DNA of 64,000 nucleotides from Phototrophicaceae bacterium (GCA_965208285.1 OZ242333.1:1637078-1701077); one strand, 5' to 3'. Shown: positions 35,007 to 43,640, numbered from the stretch's first letter. Numbers and translations: made by a program. Notes: a model not told the origin generated them from the sequence alone.

Positions 35007-35011
35007 GCCTG

Positions 35012-35085
35012 TCGGGGCGACGGGATTTGAACCCATGACCTCACCGACCCGAACGGTGCGCGCTACCGGGCTGCGCCACGCCCCG
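35012..35085 (-). tRNA. tRNA-Pro (anticodon CGG), CCA not encoded
   Basis: Hand-folded 74-nt cloverleaf: acceptor CGGGGCG/CGCCCCG, D arm GCGC-AGCCCGGTA-GCGC, anticodon arm CACCG-TTCGGGT-CGGTG, variable loop AGGTC, T arm ATGGG-TTCAAAT-CCCGT, discriminator A. Confidence 0.9.
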
Positions 35086-37373: not shown

Positions 37374-39857
37374 ATGAGCGACTCCGTCGCAGATCACGAA
37401 GAAGCGGTAGAAATCAGCGAAAACGCGGTTGTCAACGGCGCGGAACCGACTGCCAATGGCGAAAGGGACGAGGCTGCGCCCCGGCCCCTGGAGCTGCCGG
37501 TGCTGCCGCTGCGCGGAATGGTCGTCTACCCGCAAACAGCGGTGCCGCTGACCGTCGGCCAGCCCCGCAGCATGAAGCTGGTGGATGACGCGGTCAACGG
37601 CGATCGGGTCATTTGCCTCGTGGCCTCCCTGGACCCCGACAACGAGACGCCAGGCCCGGACGAGGTCTGCCGCATCGGGACGCGGGCGTCGATCCACCGT
37701 CTGTCGCGCTCGCCGGATGGCACCCTGCGCCTGCTGGTGCAGGGCCTGACGCGCCTGCGCATCGACGAGTTCGTGGAGCATGAGCCCTGGCTGAAGGCCA
37801 GCGTCAGCGAGATTCCGGAGGACACCGAGGCCGAAGAACTGGAAATCGAGGCGCTGACGCGCAACGTGGTCGATCAGTTCACGCGCATGGCCGAAATGGT
37901 GCCCAGCATCCCCGGCGAACTCATTTCTTCCGCGTTGAACATGGAAGACCCGCTGCAACTGGTCTACGCCATCGCCACCTACGTGCGCATTGAACTGGGC
38001 GAGGCGCAGAATCTGCTGGAGATCGACTCGCTGGAGAGCAAGCTGCGCCATTTGATGGCCCTGCTGGGCAAGGAACTGGAGGTGCTCGAGCTGGGCCGCA
38101 AGATCCAGACTGAAGCGCAGTCCGGCATGGAAAAGGTGCAGCGCGAGTACTTCCTGCGTGAACAGTTGAAGGCCATCCAGCGGGAGCTGGGCGAAAGCGA
38201 CGAGCAAACGGCGGAAATCGAGGAGTTCCGCAAACGCATCATGGAAGCCGGCGTGACGGAGGAGGCGCAAAAGGAAGGACTGCGCGAACTGGAGCGCCTG
38301 TCGCGCCTGCCGACCGCCGCCGCCGAATACGGCGTCATCCGCACCTGGCTCGACTGGCTGACCAGTCTGCCCTGGTCGAAGCGCAGCGAGGACAAACTGG
38401 ACATCGGCCACGCCCGCGCCGTGCTGGATGAGGACCACTACGGCCTCAAGGACATCAAGGAGCGCATCCTCGAATACCTGGCCGTGCGCAAGCTGCGCGC
38501 CGAACGCGCCGAAGAACAGGACGCGCGGGATGAACCGGCCGACCGCATCCGGCGCGATCGCAAGGGCGCGATCCTGGCCTTCGTCGGGCCGCCGGGCGTC
38601 GGCAAGACCTCGCTGGGCGCTTCCATCGCGCGCGCCATGGGGCGCGAATTCGTGCGTATGAGCCTGGGAGGAGTGCGCGACGAAGCCGAGATTCGGGGCT
38701 TCCGCCGCACCTATGTCGGCGCGATGCCCGGCCGCCTGATCCAGACCCTGCGTCGCGTCGAGTCCATCAACCCGGTCATCATGATGGACGAGGTCGACAA
38801 ACTGGGGCGCGATTTCCGTGGCGATCCGGCCAGCGCCTTGCTGGAAGTGCTCGACCCCGAACAGAATTTCGAGTTTCGCGACCACTATCTGGACGTGGCG
38901 CTGGACCTCAGCGAGGTGCTGTTTATCACCACCGCCAACGAGCTGGAACCGATTCCCGGGCCCTTGCGGGACCGCATGGAGATCATTCAGCTCAGCGGTT
39001 ACACCGAACTGGAGAAACAGGAGATCGCGAAGCGCTATCTCGTGCCGCGGCAGACCCGCGAGAACGGCCTGCGCCCATCCGAGATCGCCTTCGACGACGA
39101 GGCCCTGCAGTTGCTCATTCGAGACTACACCCGCGAGGCCGGCGTGCGCAGCTTGGAGCGGGAAATCGGGCGCGCGGCGCGCAAGGTGGTCACCCGCATC
39201 GCCGAGGGCGAAGGGGACAGCGTGGAGATCGACACGGCATTGCTGCGCGACCTGTTGGGCAAGCCGCGGCACGGCTGGCGCGAGGAGATCGCCGGACGAA
39301 CCGACCGACCGGGCGTGGCGACCGGGCTGGCCTGGACGCCCGTGGGTGGTGAGGTGCTCTTCGTCGAGGCGGCGAGCATGGCCGGCAGCAAGGGCTTTCA
39401 GTACACCGGCCAGCTGGGCGAGGTCATGCAGGAGAGCGCGCTGACGGCGCTCAGTTACGTGCGCTCGCAGGCGGAAGCGCTGGAAATCGATCCGGCGCTC
39501 TTTGACAACAACGACATTCACCTGCACGTGCCGGCGGGCGCGGTGCGCAAGGACGGCCCCTCCGCCGGCGTGACAATGGCCGTGGCCCTGGCTTCCCTGC
39601 TGACCGGCCGCCCTGTGCGCAGCGACGTGGCCATGACGGGCGAAATCACACTGCGCGGCCAGGTGCTGCCGGTGGGCGGCATCAAGGACAAGGTGCTGGC
39701 CGCGCATCGTCTGGGTGTGGGCACGGTGGTCATCCCGCACAAGAACGAAAACGACCTGGACGATCTGCCGGGCGAGGTGCGCGATTCGCTGGACTTTGTG
39801 CTGGCGGAGCGCGTCGACGACGTGCTGGGGGCCTCGCTGGGGGAACCTGGCGGGTAA
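37374..39857 (+). CDS. lon: ATP-dependent Lon protease
   Basis: [17 protein letters not shown]-domain, [15 protein letters not shown] Walker A, and protease site [14 protein letters not shown] with [12 protein letters not shown]. Confidence 0.95.
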
Positions 39858-39868
39858 CCCGTCGCAGA

Positions 39869-40267
39869 CTAGCGTAGCAGGTGCCAGCGGCCGTCGCTGC
39901 ACAATTCAATCTGGCCGCGCCGCTTCAGGCCTTGTTGCGCGTTGCGGACATAGTGCTTCCAGCGTTTGCCAAAGTGGACGCCGTCAATCACACGGTCGAT
40001 TGCATCATCGCAGATATCCGGATGGATGGCCTGAATGCAGGGGTGTAGATCTTCAGTCAAAAGCGGCCCATTGCGTTCGAGCAGGAACAGGATTGTGTTC
40101 ATCAGAATGCCGTTGGTTGTCTTGCCGCGTGCGCGGGCCTTCAACAGGGTGACTTGCGATTGTGCCAGCCCTTTGGTTAGTTTGGCCCTTGCTTCCCTGC
40201 TGGCTGAGTCTTCCATCGTTCGATAGTCCTGCTGAAGTTGCCGAATATCGCTCGCGGAACGCTGCAC
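39869..40267 (-). CDS. Winged-helix (Mrr_N-like) DNA-binding ORF. It is either a separate small gene or the frameshifted C-terminal half of the upstream PLD nuclease.
   Basis: The C-terminal 77 aa (MNTILFLLERNGPLLTEDL ... GKRWKHYVRNAQQGLKRRGQIELCSDGRWHLL) fit the Mrr_N-type wHTH pattern. Possible starts are GTG 40267, ATG 40216 or ATG 40102. It overlaps the PLD ORF by 91 nt in another frame. Confidence 0.5.
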   Translation of the reverse strand: MQRSASDIRQLQQDYRTMEDSASREARAKLTKGLAQSQVTLLKARARGKTTNGILMNTILFLLERNGPLLTEDLHPCIQAIHPDICDDAIDRVIDGVHFGKRWKHYVRNAQQGLKRRGQIELCSDGRWHLLR

Positions 40268-40701
40268 CCCAGCAAGGCAAAATCCTCAAAATCCTTGCGA
40301 ATCCGTTTCACGGTTTCTTCATCGCGCAACAGGACACCATACTCCAGGTTTTCCCTTAGGCCGCGTGTTGTCAGATTTGCTGACGAAATGATGGCTGCGT
40401 GATTGTCAGCGATGTAGACCTTGGCATGCAGCGAGGGCAGATGTGAGACCGTTGTCGGCCCGACATGTTCAGAGAACTCAACTAGGGCATCAACATTTAG
40501 CGAACCTGTGCCGTCACTGCCATTGAAGAGATTCGTGAGAATGTGTGTATGCAAAAGACGCGACTGTGCGTTCAGTACGCGGGCAACCTGTTCCAGCGGC
40601 CAGCGGGTGATGAAGGGTGAGGCAATGAAGAGCGATGAATTTACGCCACGCACGAGCTCCATGAGATGCATGGACCAGTTTCTGGAATGGATTTCAGGCA
40701 T
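40177..40701 (-). CDS. PLD-superfamily (single HKD motif) nuclease-like protein
   Basis: H-A-K-V-Y-I-A-D-N-H-A-A-I-I-S-S-A-N (40375-40428) fits HxK-x4-D-x6-(G/S)SxN. An upstream SSLFIASPFIT strand is typical of the fold. The region has low G+C. Confidence 0.75.
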   Translation of the reverse strand: MPEIHSRNWSMHLMELVRGVNSSLFIASPFITRWPLEQVARVLNAQSRLLHTHILTNLFNGSDGTGSLNVDALVEFSEHVGPTTVSHLPSLHAKVYIADNHAAIISSANLTTRGLRENLEYGVLLRDEETVKRIRKDFEDFALLGCSVPRAIFGNFSRTIERWKTQPAGKQGPN

Positions 40702-40712
40702 TTGGCCCCCGA

Positions 40713-40741
40713 ATTGGTAGCTCGAACGAACATTGGTAGCT
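40713..40741. repeat. 10-nt direct repeat ATTGGTAGCT x2 (19-nt register) in the divergent promoter region
   Basis: attggtagct at 40713-40722 and again at 40732-40741, separated by cgaacgaac. It lies between the PLD start (40701) and the small plus-strand ORF (40822). Confidence 0.6.
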
Positions 40742-40821
40742 TGCCCTCACGAGGTGCCCGGCCTACAGATTTAATATGCAGGCCACTGCAAGGGTGCGGG
40801 TTGTTGGGAAGGAGCGTACCA

Positions 40822-41097
40822 ATGAATAGCATGCCACCACAGGCATTTTACTCCAGCAAAATCTGCTGGCGAGGGGTCTGGACGCTGGGGCTTCTCAGAC
40901 TGAACGAGGAAATCAGCGACAGAATGGTGCAACTGCTGGAGCAAGAATTGGCCGACCTGTACAGGGTAACCGAAGCGAAGTTGCGCCGCGAAAGCAGGGA
41001 CGTGGATGTTGACCTGAGGGATCTGAAAACATCGTATCAGGATGTTTGTGGAGTCTTGGGGAGTGACTTTCTGGATCCAGCGGATGTCGGTGTGTAA
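40822..41097 (+). CDS. Small hypothetical protein (91 aa)
   Basis: The ATG at 40822 lies 8 nt after GGAAGGAG. The protein is predicted helical and acidic. No family was recognised. The longer track ORF (from 40666) would overlap the PLD start. Confidence 0.4.
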   Translation: MNSMPPQAFYSSKICWRGVWTLGLLRLNEEISDRMVQLLEQELADLYRVTEAKLRRESRDVDVDLRDLKTSYQDVCGVLGSDFLDPADVGV

Positions 41098-41182
41098 CGG
41101 TCTTCACAGCCAACAAGGTCGGCCTGACATTCCAAAAAACTGGCTTGAGCGGAAAAGAAACGGCCCAATGCGCAGAAGACCG

Positions 41183-41211
41183 CTGACGATCCACAGGGAT
41201 TACGCTATACT
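41183..41211 (+). promoter_or_regulatory. Putative promoter of the PHP-AlbA_2 gene
   Basis: CTGACG (41183-41188), 17 nt, TATACT (41206-41211), about 75 nt upstream of the ATG at 41287. Confidence 0.3.
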
Positions 41212-41286
41212 GCAAACGGGCGGCGGGAGATTTTGCCCAGGCAGCGGAGAGAGACGAAAAACTTGCCATCCAGACGCAAGGTGCGC

Positions 41287-43041
41287 ATGAAGTGGTACCG
41301 CGCCGACCTGCATCTGCACACACCCGCTTCTGATGACTATCAGCAGCGTTCTGTTTCCACCCTCGATATCCTGCGCCAGGCCGAAAGTCGCGGCCTGGAC
41401 ATCGTGGCCTTCACCGACCACAACACGGTCGGGGGCTACGCCGCCATGCAGCAGGAGATCGAGCAACTCATCTGGCTGGAACAACTGGGCCGCATCCAGG
41501 CCGCCGAGCAGGACAAGCTGACGGACTACCGTCGCCTGCTGGAAAAAGTCCTCGTGCTGCCCGGTTTTGAATTCACCGCCACGCTGGGCTTCCACATCCT
41601 TGGCATTTTCGCGCCGGAAACCCCCTTGCGCCAACTGGAGCATGTGTTGCTCAGTCTGAACGTGCCGCCCGAGGCGCTGGAAGCCGGCTCCTCGCGGGTC
41701 GGCGCTTCCGCCGACGTGCTCACGGCCTATCGCCTGATCAACGAGGCCGGCGGCATCTGCATCGCAGCCCACGTCAACAGCACGCACGGCGTGGCCATGC
41801 GCGGCGTGGATTTCGGCGGTCAGACGCGCATCGCCTATACGCAGGACCCCAACCTGCACGCGCTGGAGGTCACCGACCTGGCCAGCAGGACGCGCAACAG
41901 CACGCAGCGCTTCTTTTCGGGCACCAAGCCGGAGTATCCGCGACGCATGCGCTGTGTGCAGGGCTCGGACGCGCATCGACTGCGCGCCGGCAGTGGCAGG
42001 GACAGGGCCCGAAACCTCGGCATCGGCGACCGCGTGACCGAGGTGCAATTGCCGGAACGCTCCTTCCCGGCGTTGCTGGAATTGTTCCGCAGCAACGATT
42101 TCTCGCGCTCCAGACCCTGGACCGTCAGCAGCAACAACTACGACTACGTGGCCCTGGCGCGGGAGGATGGCAGCAGCGTCATTCAGTCATTCCACGAATC
42201 GATGACGCGGCGCGGCGGACGTCTTTACAACATCATCAGTGACGTCTGCGCCTTCGCCAACGGCAATGGCGGCACCATCTGGGTGGGGGCCAGCGACGAC
42301 CGCAAACAGCCACCCGCCGGCGTGAGCCGCGTGAAGGACAGCATCAAGACCCTCGGCGAGGCGATCAACAGCATGCTGACGCCAACGCTGGAAGTCACCA
42401 TTGACGCCCTGGAGAGCCAGGGCAAGCAGGTCGTGCGCCTGCGCGTGCCACGCGGTGAGGACAAGCCCTACGCCATTGAGGACTACAAGATTTACGTGCG
42501 CTCCGAGAGCGAGACCAACCTCGCCGTGCGTGACGAGATCGTCAATCTGGTGCGACAACAGTCCGACGCGGATTCGTCTGGCGCCGCGGCCGGCACGCCG
42601 GCCCAGGGGGGTGACGACGCACAGGGCAACGAGCGCGCCAAAGATTCAGCGGCGGGTAACGCGAAGGAATCGGGCGCAGACGACAAGGGCGTCAAACCGC
42701 CGCGTGGCGGCGTCGAGATCGTCGGCACCGAGCAGCGCAACGACGTGCGTTATCATGTGCTGCGCGACCTGCGTAACGGCAACATCGTCAAAAACGTGAC
42801 GCGTTCCTCCGCGCGCCGGCTCTGGCACTACGCCATCACACGGCGCGAAAACAACCCGGTGCGCGCCGGCAACGTGCAGTGGCAGGGCGACATCGGCCTG
42901 GTGCGGCGTTACCAGCGCGATGGCAAACCCCGTTTTGACCTGGCGCAGCGCAACAACGGCGACATTCGCGTCTATTACGGCGTTGCCGAAAGCGGCATGC
43001 ACGGGGAATGGCAGGTCTTCCTCAGCGAAGAGGAAAACTGA
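41287..43041 (+). CDS. PHP-domain phosphoesterase fused to an AlbA_2 (Schlafen-type) DNA-binding domain and an unrecognised C-terminal domain
   Basis: PHP ligand motifs are present in order: [35 protein letters not shown]. AlbA_2 core: [18 protein letters not shown] ... [16 protein letters not shown] ... [18 protein letters not shown] low-complexity acidic/Gly linker follows, then about 110 aa of unknown sequence. ATG at 41287 ([11 protein letters not shown]). Confidence 0.75.
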
Positions 43042-43581
43042 TCAAGCTGGAACTGGCCCGTCAGTTGCTTCGCGATAGCGGCTGCGAAAGGCCGAATCGT
43101 TCATGTGCCAGGGCTCACCGGCCGAGCCGATTAATAACCACTGACCTGCCGCCACCTGGACCGGCGCCGCGCTTTCCAGCGACTGAATGAGTTGCCGGGT
43201 CGCCAGCTTCCGGGCCCAGACGCCGCTGTGCTTGTACCAGGCGGAGCAACCGGCCTGAAAAAACAGGGGGAGATCTGTCAGGTCCGGCAACTGCTCGTCC
43301 CAGGGACGATAATTCTTCTCGAAGAGGTCCCGACGCACGGGCCAGTGTTCGTGTTCTTCCCGGTGAGCGCGGGTTTGTTCGTCCGGCCGGTAGCACAGCA
43401 TGTCGCCGGGCCAGGCCTGAAGCGCACCGTCGGCCGTCCTGACCGTTCGCGCGCAGCCCAGTTCGCGCGCCATGACCAGGCGCTTGCGTGGATGAAAAAG
43501 GCGGAAACCCGTGGCGCGCAGCGCTTCTTCAGTCCAGTCGCGCTGTCTCAGAACCGCATCCGCATCCCTTGCGCTTCCCAT
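43042..43581 (-). CDS. Hypothetical protein (about 180 aa)
   Basis: Host-like G+C ORF directly downstream of the J-domain gene. No motif was recognised. The start is ATG 43581 or TTG 43611. Its stop abuts the stop of the convergent PHP gene (TGATCA). Confidence 0.45.
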   Translation of the reverse strand: MGSARDADAVLRQRDWTEEALRATGFRLFHPRKRLVMARELGCARTVRTADGALQAWPGDMLCYRPDEQTRAHREEHEHWPVRRDLFEKNYRPWDEQLPDLTDLPLFFQAGCSAWYKHSGVWARKLATRQLIQSLESAAPVQVAAGQWLLIGSAGEPWHMNDSAFRSRYREATDGPVPA

Positions 43582-43640
43582 GGTGGTCTGGTCCCGCGCT
43601 GATTTCGGCAAGTATAGCGCGACGCCGGCAATGGGCGTCC

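Follow-up and report, generated by a model that had tools for sequence, protein, structure and literature searches.

Do the genes that follow lon in a Phototrophicaceae bacterium work together as one defence system? In a stretch of 64,000 nucleotides (nt) from this organism (GCA_965208285.1 OZ242333.1:1637078-1701077, hereafter the window), a sequence-only reading had described positions 39869-43041 as a single accessory nucleic-acid-targeting module, composed of a phospholipase D-type (PLD) nuclease with a winged helix-turn-helix (wHTH) domain, a small open reading frame (ORF) and a protein with PHP and AlbA_2 domains as a possible sensing or targeting partner. Such a two-nuclease defence system, if new, would have been of consequence, but the evidence does not bear it out. 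ORF listing and profile searches gave five features for the lon-to-PHP interval, and their comparison with other genomes points, with good probability, to two independent units: a decaying accessory PLD-wHTH cassette, lying between lon and a conserved core gene for a PHP-AlbA_2 protein with a C-terminal domain (CTD) of its own. Adjacency in one genome misled the earlier reading; comparative context separates the core gene from the decaying accessory insert.

Genomic context was counted for both large proteins. For the PHP-AlbA_2 gene one genome per species was scanned; at least 554 species have the gene, and the count covers the 80 best species-representative loci. The PLD-wHTH count covers 80 metagenomic loci of more distant members of a family with at least 662 detected members. 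Comparison loci are numbered L001-L172, L081 being a metagenome-assembled genome (MAG) of the window's own species with 99% identity. The PLD, wHTH or small ORF of the window was found in none of the 80 PHP-AlbA_2 loci (0/80), and neither a PHP-AlbA_2 gene nor a gene for the 91-amino-acid (aa) product of the small ORF was found beside the PLD-wHTH homologues (0/80). The expected conserved neighbourhood of PHP-AlbA_2 and PLD/wHTH genes is thus not seen. The conserved context is lon instead, which lies directly upstream on the same strand in 66 of the 80 loci, mostly followed by a response regulator; this is essentially the outcome that the sequence-only reading had itself named as speaking against a joint module.

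A database search with the PHP-AlbA_2 protein returned more than 7000 homologues, of which the best 120 were all full-length, with 62-99% identity, and came from Anaerolineae/Chloroflexota MAGs. Identity across the 80 best loci was 55-90% over the full length, and all but one, labelled Bacteroidetes, were Chloroflexota-type MAGs. Judged by these comparisons, PHP-AlbA_2-CTD belongs to the core genes of Anaerolineae-type Chloroflexota and is inherited vertically.

The DNA between lon and this gene has the marks of an insertion. lon, the flanking core gene (LonA protease; 37374-39857, plus strand; LON_substr_bdg, AAA and Lon_C matched in Pfam on the orthologue), encodes a protein 97% identical to that of the cassette-free locus L082 up to ...LGE844, where homology ends, and its last codons and stop come from the inserted DNA. 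The Lon C-terminus reads ...LGE-PGG before the stop in the window. In L081 (4570-4590) it reads ...LGE-PGGKAVAD and overlaps the PLD stop, and cassette-free relatives have ...LGE-VELT. Homology with these relatives resumes at the Shine-Dalgarno (SD) sequence of the PHP gene, GAGAGAGACGAA. Alignment with the cassette-free loci L001, L002, L082 and L084 places the cassette at 39845-41246 (about 1.4 kb, approximate boundaries), where it replaces a native lon-PHP intergenic region of 145-191 nt. Its G+C content is 54.5% (39861-41246), whereas lon has 66% and the PHP gene 64.5%; along the DNA, values of 53-57% between about 39.8 and 41.3 kb are flanked by about 65% on either side, and in the three lineages examined the cassette has 53-55% G+C and the flanks 65-67%. 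The PHP gene is therefore host-like in composition, as had been noted from one sampled line, and the suspicion that the two halves of the locus differ in origin is borne out, the cassette being low in G+C and patchy, the PHP gene core and lon-syntenic. The description as an accessory module inserted beside a housekeeping gene holds for the PLD/wHTH and small-ORF segment, not for the PHP-AlbA_2 gene.

The cassette is present or absent among relatives of one family while the PHP protein stays 75-99% identical. L082-L085, with PHP proteins 94-95% identical to that of the window, have no cassette and 145 nt between lon and the PHP gene; an empty allele of 145-191 nt is also found in L001/2 (89-90%), L172 (81%) and L003/4 (75-78%). 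The empty alleles have in common a conserved GCGCTATACT box and the same SD sequence. In the window, a promoter-like site, CTGACG-17-TATACT (41183-41211, plus strand), is a consensus match only; its box (C)GCTATACT also occurs in cassette-free intergenic regions. The closest PLD relatives (71%, 59% and 55% identical; L167/168, L169, L086, L170) all lie at this exact lon/PHP site, in the order lon terminus, PLD, homologous small ORF, PHP gene. By this distribution the cassette is an accessory insertion limited to some lineages of one family. Its history may be read in two ways that both fit, as an old insertion with repeated loss or as spread among relatives by recombination through the conserved flanks. 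No convincing terminal inverted repeats or target duplication were found round the cassette of the window, and it contains no recombinase gene. In L170 (2909-2938, 4276-4313) the cassette is bracketed by a direct repeat of about 20 nt of the lon terminus, 1367 nt apart, with the right-hand copy expanded to three tandem GGGGTGAC units; this flanking repeat is a possible substrate for precise excision.

The PLD gene on the minus strand begins with a truncated ORF of 174 aa (40177-40701) that matches PLDc_2 with 52.2 bits (cutoff 27; 7e-14) and, above threshold, RE_NgoFVII (2.6e-6). It has one HxK(x)4D(x)6(G/S)SxN motif per chain, the HKD motif HAKVYIADNHAAIISSAN at 40375-40428, which the sequence-only reading had located correctly; H92, K94, D99 and N109 are invariant in an alignment of the family. 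The closest profile matches to solved proteins were SauUSI, PLD3/4, Zucchini, BfiI, NucT and Nuc, and by profile this half is nearest to nuclease-type PLDs. The C-terminal part of the gene, a coiled linker and a winged-helix-like domain (…HPDICDD…GKRWKHYVRNAQQGLKRRGQIEL…GRWHLL), is detached from it. It lies at 39869-40267 (minus strand) in another frame than the PLD ORF, with an overlap of 91 nt, is identical to residues 170-284 of the intact allele, and could give a 115-aa product from ATG 40216. The HKD ORF and the winged-helix-like sequence said to follow it are thus both present, but a frameshift keeps them from being one ORF. Searches of Pfam (Mrr_N included) with the C-terminal 90 aa of the window protein and of two relatives gave no match at E ≤ 10 apart from a sub-threshold one to DUF7669 (0.0068), and no match in the profile search against solved structures spans the winged-helix-like region; 'Mrr_N-like' remains a resemblance at sequence level, not an assignment.

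Alignment with L081 traced the frameshift to a deletion of 22 bp, with its scar at 40246-40251. L081 has ATCGTTCGCGTAATTCACCAGA at this place, flanked by the imperfect repeat ATCG(T/C)TCGCG. The deletion shifts the frame of the PLD-wHTH gene after residue ~151 and splits 284 aa into the products of 174 and 115 aa. L081 and three NCBI MAG proteins have the gene as one intact ORF of 284 aa, an allele carried by at least three MAGs, of which MDD9954920.1 is an example; for the split products, the 3.05-Mb contig of the window is the sole record. In addition, the glycine just past the HKD motif, invariant in 16 family members, is replaced in the window (G114R; 40360-40362, minus strand). The 91-aa ORF beside this damaged gene differs from that of L081 by a single synonymous change. 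The pattern of lesions, a deletion and G114R next to an intact small ORF, fits relaxed selection on the nuclease. Because the slippage deletion detaches the DNA-binding half and G114R is a second lesion, we regard the cassette as decaying and not as part of an active two-nuclease system: as far as the alignments tell, the PLD nuclease gene is broken in the window and the locus here is a decaying remnant.

The PLD gene and the 91-aa ORF diverge from a region of 120 nt (40702-40821), and the 10-nt direct repeat described for it was found there: two direct copies of ATTGGTAGCT with 19-nt spacing (40713-40722 and 40732-40741), at the 5' edge of the PLD gene and absent from the rest of the window. 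By our estimate, about 0.006 exact 10-nt pairs are expected by chance in 120 nt. The pair and its spacing are kept in L081, L086, L169 and L170, with one copy in L167/168, and in L086, L169 and L170 the pair persists though the cassette proteins are only 55-59% identical and the surrounding DNA has diverged. Because the repeats fall in differing reading frames of an N-terminal extension found in some PLD relatives, their conservation is at the DNA level, and the pair is most likely an operator.

The small ORF (40822-41097, plus strand), which is oriented divergently to the PLD gene and in the same direction as the PHP gene, encodes an acidic, cassette-specific protein of 91 aa (isoelectric point 4.6). 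The good ribosome-binding site attributed to it is an AAGGAG box 7 nt upstream, and it is under purifying selection (ratio of non-synonymous to synonymous substitution rates, dN/dS, ~0.17-0.27). Homologues occupy the same place in L086 and L169 (56-59% identity to the window copy) and in L170, with a more divergent one in L167. They were found just by reading the homologous cassettes: a large-database search returned only the protein itself, and comparison with Pfam, PADLOC and NCBIfam assigned no family, apart from a sub-threshold match to DUF6236.

The PLD-wHTH architecture (~290 aa) has a strongly conserved C-terminal motif, HPDICDD…DRVIDGVHFGKRWKHYVRNAQQ. Away from the lon site, N6_N4_Mtase sequence adjoins PLD in 38 of the 80 loci: the N-terminal half of the methyltransferase (MTase) lies 330-420 nt upstream in 24, an ORF with the C-half only lies 20-40 nt downstream in 13, and one locus has both halves. 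Mrr_cat-like genes adjoin PLD in 17/80 loci and MTaX1-HNH genes in 13/80. Because its relatives adjoin DNA methyltransferase, Mrr-like and HNH genes, the family looks like a restriction-type nuclease by context. The half-size MTase ORFs had suggested homing of the PLD gene into methyltransferase genes; this idea was given up after a re-scan with hidden Markov models, in which the N-half class is most simply a full upstream MTase, complete in L156. The C-half-only class (L087, L090, L097-L102, L104, L107, L120, L127, L157) consists of ORFs of 117-183 aa that correspond to the S-adenosylmethionine (AdoMet)-binding half of an N6_N4 methyltransferase, have no catalytic SPPF/DPPY half, and for which an N-half was not found elsewhere in the locus. 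At the lon site, tblastn with both MTase halves gave no match in the 64-kb window, L081 or L086.

Among known proteins, Nuc, BfiI, NgoAVII/NgoFVII and the PLD domain of SauUSI share with the family a single HKD motif per chain, a nuclease with a separate DNA-binding domain, and an MTase beside relatives. However, the C-terminus of the window family is small and winged-helix-like, in contrast to the B3-like domain of BfiI and NgoAVII, and the helicase and target recognition domain of SauUSI are missing. Unlike PLD restriction enzymes, the lon-site subclade has no methyltransferase but a private 91-aa partner and operator-like repeats, and the window copy is frameshifted. The PLD domain is also similar in size to DrmC of DISARM (PADLOC DrmC models to 2e-16), whereas the wHTH tail is absent from DrmC. 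Membership in DISARM was rejected: DISARM_DrmC_I of NCBIfam scored 71.6 bits against a cutoff of 133, and no DrmA, DrmB, DrmD/E or DrmM was found among the neighbours.

By analogy with Nuc and BfiI, an intact PLD protein would act as a homodimer, with one active site built from two HKD motifs and the C-terminal domain directing it to DNA. The lon-site subclade appears to have swapped the methyltransferase for the small acidic protein and the operator repeats. A nuclease at this site without methyltransferase might be modification-dependent (Type IV-like), or restrained by the small acidic protein together with autoregulation at the repeats. As a secondary possibility, PLD-wHTH, 91-aa protein and operator would make up a new type of nuclease/inhibitor module, minimal and free of a methyltransferase. 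The compact nuclease family with its methyltransferase, Mrr-like and HNH neighbourhoods, and with this subclade, offers a tractable candidate for a minimal module of restriction or addiction.

The core gene, in contrast to the PLD gene, is intact. It occupies 41263-43041 (plus strand) and starts at TTG 41263 (592 aa) or at ATG 41287, which gives the 584 aa of the sequence-only reading. TTG 41263 is the most likely start by sequence; it is preceded by the SD sequence GGAGAG (41247-41252) and agrees with the NCBI call for the orthologue and with the MASRKKxRM N-termini of homologues. The N-terminal part (41287-42096) is a PHP metal-dependent phosphoesterase domain, identified by profiles, alignment and Foldseek. 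The ligand motifs reported earlier (H9/H11, D44-H45, E95, H162, D228-A-H230) are invariant in an alignment of 23 homologues, as is much of the C-terminal tail. The Pfam PHP match is below cutoff (20.9 vs 26.4), and support for the domain comes from the NCBIfam Ppl/TrlF models, whose PHP modules are matched over ~230 aa with 86 bits, and from Foldseek matches to the PHP phosphoesterases 3e0f, 2anu and 2yb1 (E 1e-4 to 8e-4). The AlbA_2/Schlafen-type domain, with its Pfam-matched core at 42214-42519, was equally confirmed (SLFN_AlbA_2, PF04326; 65.8 bits vs cutoff 25.3; 6.5e-18; Foldseek matches 2kyy and 3lmm). Compared with SLFN11, it aligns weakly to both lobes, limited to the central AFAN…GG…VG core; the invariant D319 falls at an acidic position of SLFN11, with uncertain register upstream of it.

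A low-complexity linker separates the AlbA_2 domain from a conserved tail of 115 aa (42694-43038), for which the sequence-only reading had found no place. Structure prediction did not change this. The full-length AlphaFold (AF2) model was poor (predicted local distance difference test, pLDDT, 63), and a CTD-only model from 36 diverse sequences was used instead; it was confident (pLDDT 95.6, predicted template modelling score 0.89) and consists of two beta-sheet-plus-helix units. A Foldseek search with this model gave a best PDB match at E 0.015 with template modelling (TM) scores ≤ 0.33, and a best viral structure at E 0.026. Matches to SsgB, tandem dsRBD and Tudor folds, weak and with TM ≤ 0.33, were not accepted as homology. 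An exhaustive HMMER search found the CTD in 268 representative clusters only, and all longer CTD proteins that were tested had AlbA_2, with or without PHP. On the evidence of the model and these searches, the CTD is private to the PHP-AlbA_2 family and without recognisable structural relative.

In most lon-linked loci lon and the PHP gene are not immediate neighbours. A single-domain response regulator (receiver, REC; ~117 aa) lies between them in 58 of the 66 (59 of the 61 loci whose lon-PHP gap was scanned). The Response_reg match of the lon-linked regulator is 3.3e-20 in Pfam, and all phospho-acceptor residues are present. The gap is usually about 500 nt, with REC some 5–100 nt away from either gene, at a median of ~79 nt from lon and ~88 nt from the PHP gene (for example L007, 9347-10001, and L063, 9592-10001, among the triad loci in L005-L080); in several lineages lon ends within a few nt of where REC begins. 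Where extra DNA is present, REC stays beside one of its two partners. From the position of REC in most lon-linked loci, a tight triad of lon, REC and PHP-AlbA_2-CTD, all in the same direction, can therefore be taken as the ancestral arrangement. The family of the window (L001-L004, L055, L067, L070, L082-85, L172) has no REC between lon and PHP, and neither has the window (39858-41286); a search of the window and of its family's flanks found no displaced copy. By this comparison, the family has lost REC at the lon site. Junctions of lon, REC and PHP with other cargo occur in L005, L006, L008, L009, L029, L033, L041 and L052, with gaps of 1.5-4.8 kb; the cargo, such as a membrane protein of ~550 aa or an NmrA/epimerase-like protein of ~330 aa, is not specifically defence-related. 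The lon/PHP site is a modest insertion hotspot.

The triad seems to be undescribed. Single-domain response regulators are known to steer an AAA+ protease: CpdR and RssB act on ClpXP. The lon-linked regulator resembles them in being a stand-alone receiver, encoded directly after a protease gene in related genomes, but its partner gene is lon and not one for ClpXP, its adaptor role is putative, and the receiver gene is absent from the window and from its family's flanks. Class-wide vertical conservation and fixed lon synteny argue for a housekeeping or stress role of PHP-AlbA_2-CTD. The protein may be a constitutive nucleic-acid-binding metal phosphoesterase or nuclease, in which binding of the substrate would fall to the AlbA_2 domain and the CTD, and cutting or trimming to the PHP domain; expression or regulation would be shared with Lon, and the gene would not be a mobile defence gene. 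Tentatively, the triad may be a class-wide operon for an unrecognised, phospho-signal-controlled enzyme of nucleic-acid processing or quality control that works with or under Lon, its CTD fold being absent from solved structures. The triad is present in hundreds of Chloroflexota species and makes a connection between regulated proteolysis and the metabolism of nucleic acids open to test, and the conserved triad with its novel, confidently folded CTD is the most promising lead from this locus.

Both domains of the protein also have relatives in defence systems. Ppl, the TrlF family and the Spaf_1101 family, which are anti-phage PHP-ATPases, have an alignable N-terminal PHP module of ~230 aa (PADLOC Ppl 5e-20; NCBIfam Ppl/TrlF ~86 bits). 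Membership in Ppl was rejected, with 86 bits against a cutoff of 1000, positions 3-209 of the 882 in the profile matched and no ATPase; for TrlF the ~86 bits compare with a cutoff of 350, and the PHP module alone is matched. The window protein has AlbA_2 and a private CTD in place of the ATPase, and its gene is core and lon-syntenic, not patchy. In prokaryotic immunity, AlbA_2/Schlafen domains serve as tRNA nucleases (PMC13462974). With the Schlafen/AlbA_2 proteins (mammalian SLFN11-14, prokaryotic Cash and the RecG-related AlbA_2 regulators 2kyy and 3lmm) the protein shares an above-threshold PF04326 match and an aligning core motif; in contrast to Schlafen and Cash, a single AlbA_2 lobe is fused to PHP and the new CTD, with no Csx15-like sensor domain and no helicase. 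Among the conserved neighbours of PHP-AlbA_2, no defence genes were seen.

How far do these results decide between the possible explanations of the locus? That PLD-wHTH, small ORF and PHP-AlbA_2 belong together as a single defence-like system of several genes, in which a nuclease has a sensing or targeting partner, is highly improbable and close to refuted. The genes are adjacent, small ORF and PHP gene point the same way, nuclease-type domains occur in both large proteins, and the same arrangement recurs in L081, L086, L170, L167 and L169; yet the two context counts gave no co-occurrence from either side, the sequence and synteny of the PHP gene are the same with or without the cassette, G+C and G+C at third codon positions (GC3) differ between the parts, the PLD gene decays in the window beside an intact PHP gene, and scans for known defence systems (PADLOC, NCBIfam) gave sub-threshold matches at the level of domains only. 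We consider it unlikely, too, that PHP-AlbA_2-CTD is itself a fixed chromosomal immune effector, a Schlafen-type RNase with a PHP nuclease restrained by Lon and the response regulator. The tRNA nucleases just cited, a PHP module most like those of Ppl/TrlF and the tight linkage to a protease and a signalling receiver would suit such a role, but conservation throughout the class at 55-90% identity and in fixed synteny is unlike that of known defence genes, the SLFN11 alignment covers the AlbA_2 core only, so that the Schlafen catalytic acidic residues are not established, and the conserved neighbourhood is free of visible defence genes. Two independent units remain the reading we favour. Against it stand the roughly five cassette lineages (window/L081, L167/168, L169, L086, L170), all at the same site beside the PHP gene, so that a lineage-specific functional link between cassette and PHP gene may exist; the cassette replaces the native promoter region, and read-through from the small ORF into the PHP gene may couple their expression. 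The likeness of PHP to the modules of anti-phage Ppl/TrlF makes a defence-related ancestry of the core gene possible, and conceivable also because AlbA_2 acts in immunity. Finally, only a single assembly shows the 22-bp deletion, and in principle the PLD fragment of 174 aa and the wHTH fragment of 115 aa might each still be made on its own.

This last point leads to the view that the PLD cassette is intact and active, with the 22-bp gap and G114R as errors of assembly or consensus, or the fragments as a split enzyme. The split allele is on a single contig of 3.05 Mb, at least three MAGs have identical intact alleles, and for the wHTH fragment there is a separate ATG with a weak AGGA box. A deletion of 22 bp between imperfect direct repeats, however, is typical of real slippage and not of sequencing error, the second lesion hits an invariant residue next to a small ORF with only a synonymous change, and the deletion severs the catalytic from the DNA-binding half, which makes an active cassette improbable. 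Little probability, likewise, goes to the cassette as a selfish, homing-like element whose sequence-specific PLD-wHTH protein cuts the empty lon/PHP junction and spreads by recombination through the flanks. It would account for an insertion point that is identical, in the last lon codons, though the cassette proteins are only 55-71% identical, for the patchy occurrence among close relatives, of which those without cassette keep one conserved empty allele, for the foreign G+C of the cassette in all hosts, for the target duplication in L170 and for a cassette with no recombinase gene. But vertical descent with repeated loss gives the same pattern, and the divergence approximately parallels that of the hosts (L086: PLD 55% vs PHP 75%); PLD-wHTH relatives elsewhere resemble ordinary restriction-modification components with the methyltransferase upstream; and the PLD gene has no homologue in the phage collection and, in the plasmid collection, one distant match to the PLD domain with 30% identity.

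Further observations concern the surroundings. L171 (1-4346), with a PHP protein 80% identical to that of the window, has no lon upstream and two large proteins of 755 and 654 aa with no Pfam match. For lon in the window, the probable start is ATG 37374 and not the GTG with which the longest ORF begins. The PHP gene abuts a convergent hypothetical gene of 189 aa (43042-43611, minus strand; the two end at 43041/43042), whose conservation is limited to closer relatives (14/80 loci) and whose match to PGDYG is weak and sub-threshold. No Rfam families were found in 37-45 kb. Neighbours in the window are a pgsA-like gene, lgt, a DinB-family gene, lon, a DnaJ-domain gene and genes for an amylase, a cupin and a YkuD protein; upstream of the pgsA-lgt-DinB-lon block lies a tRNA-Pro(CGG) gene (35011-35085, minus strand).

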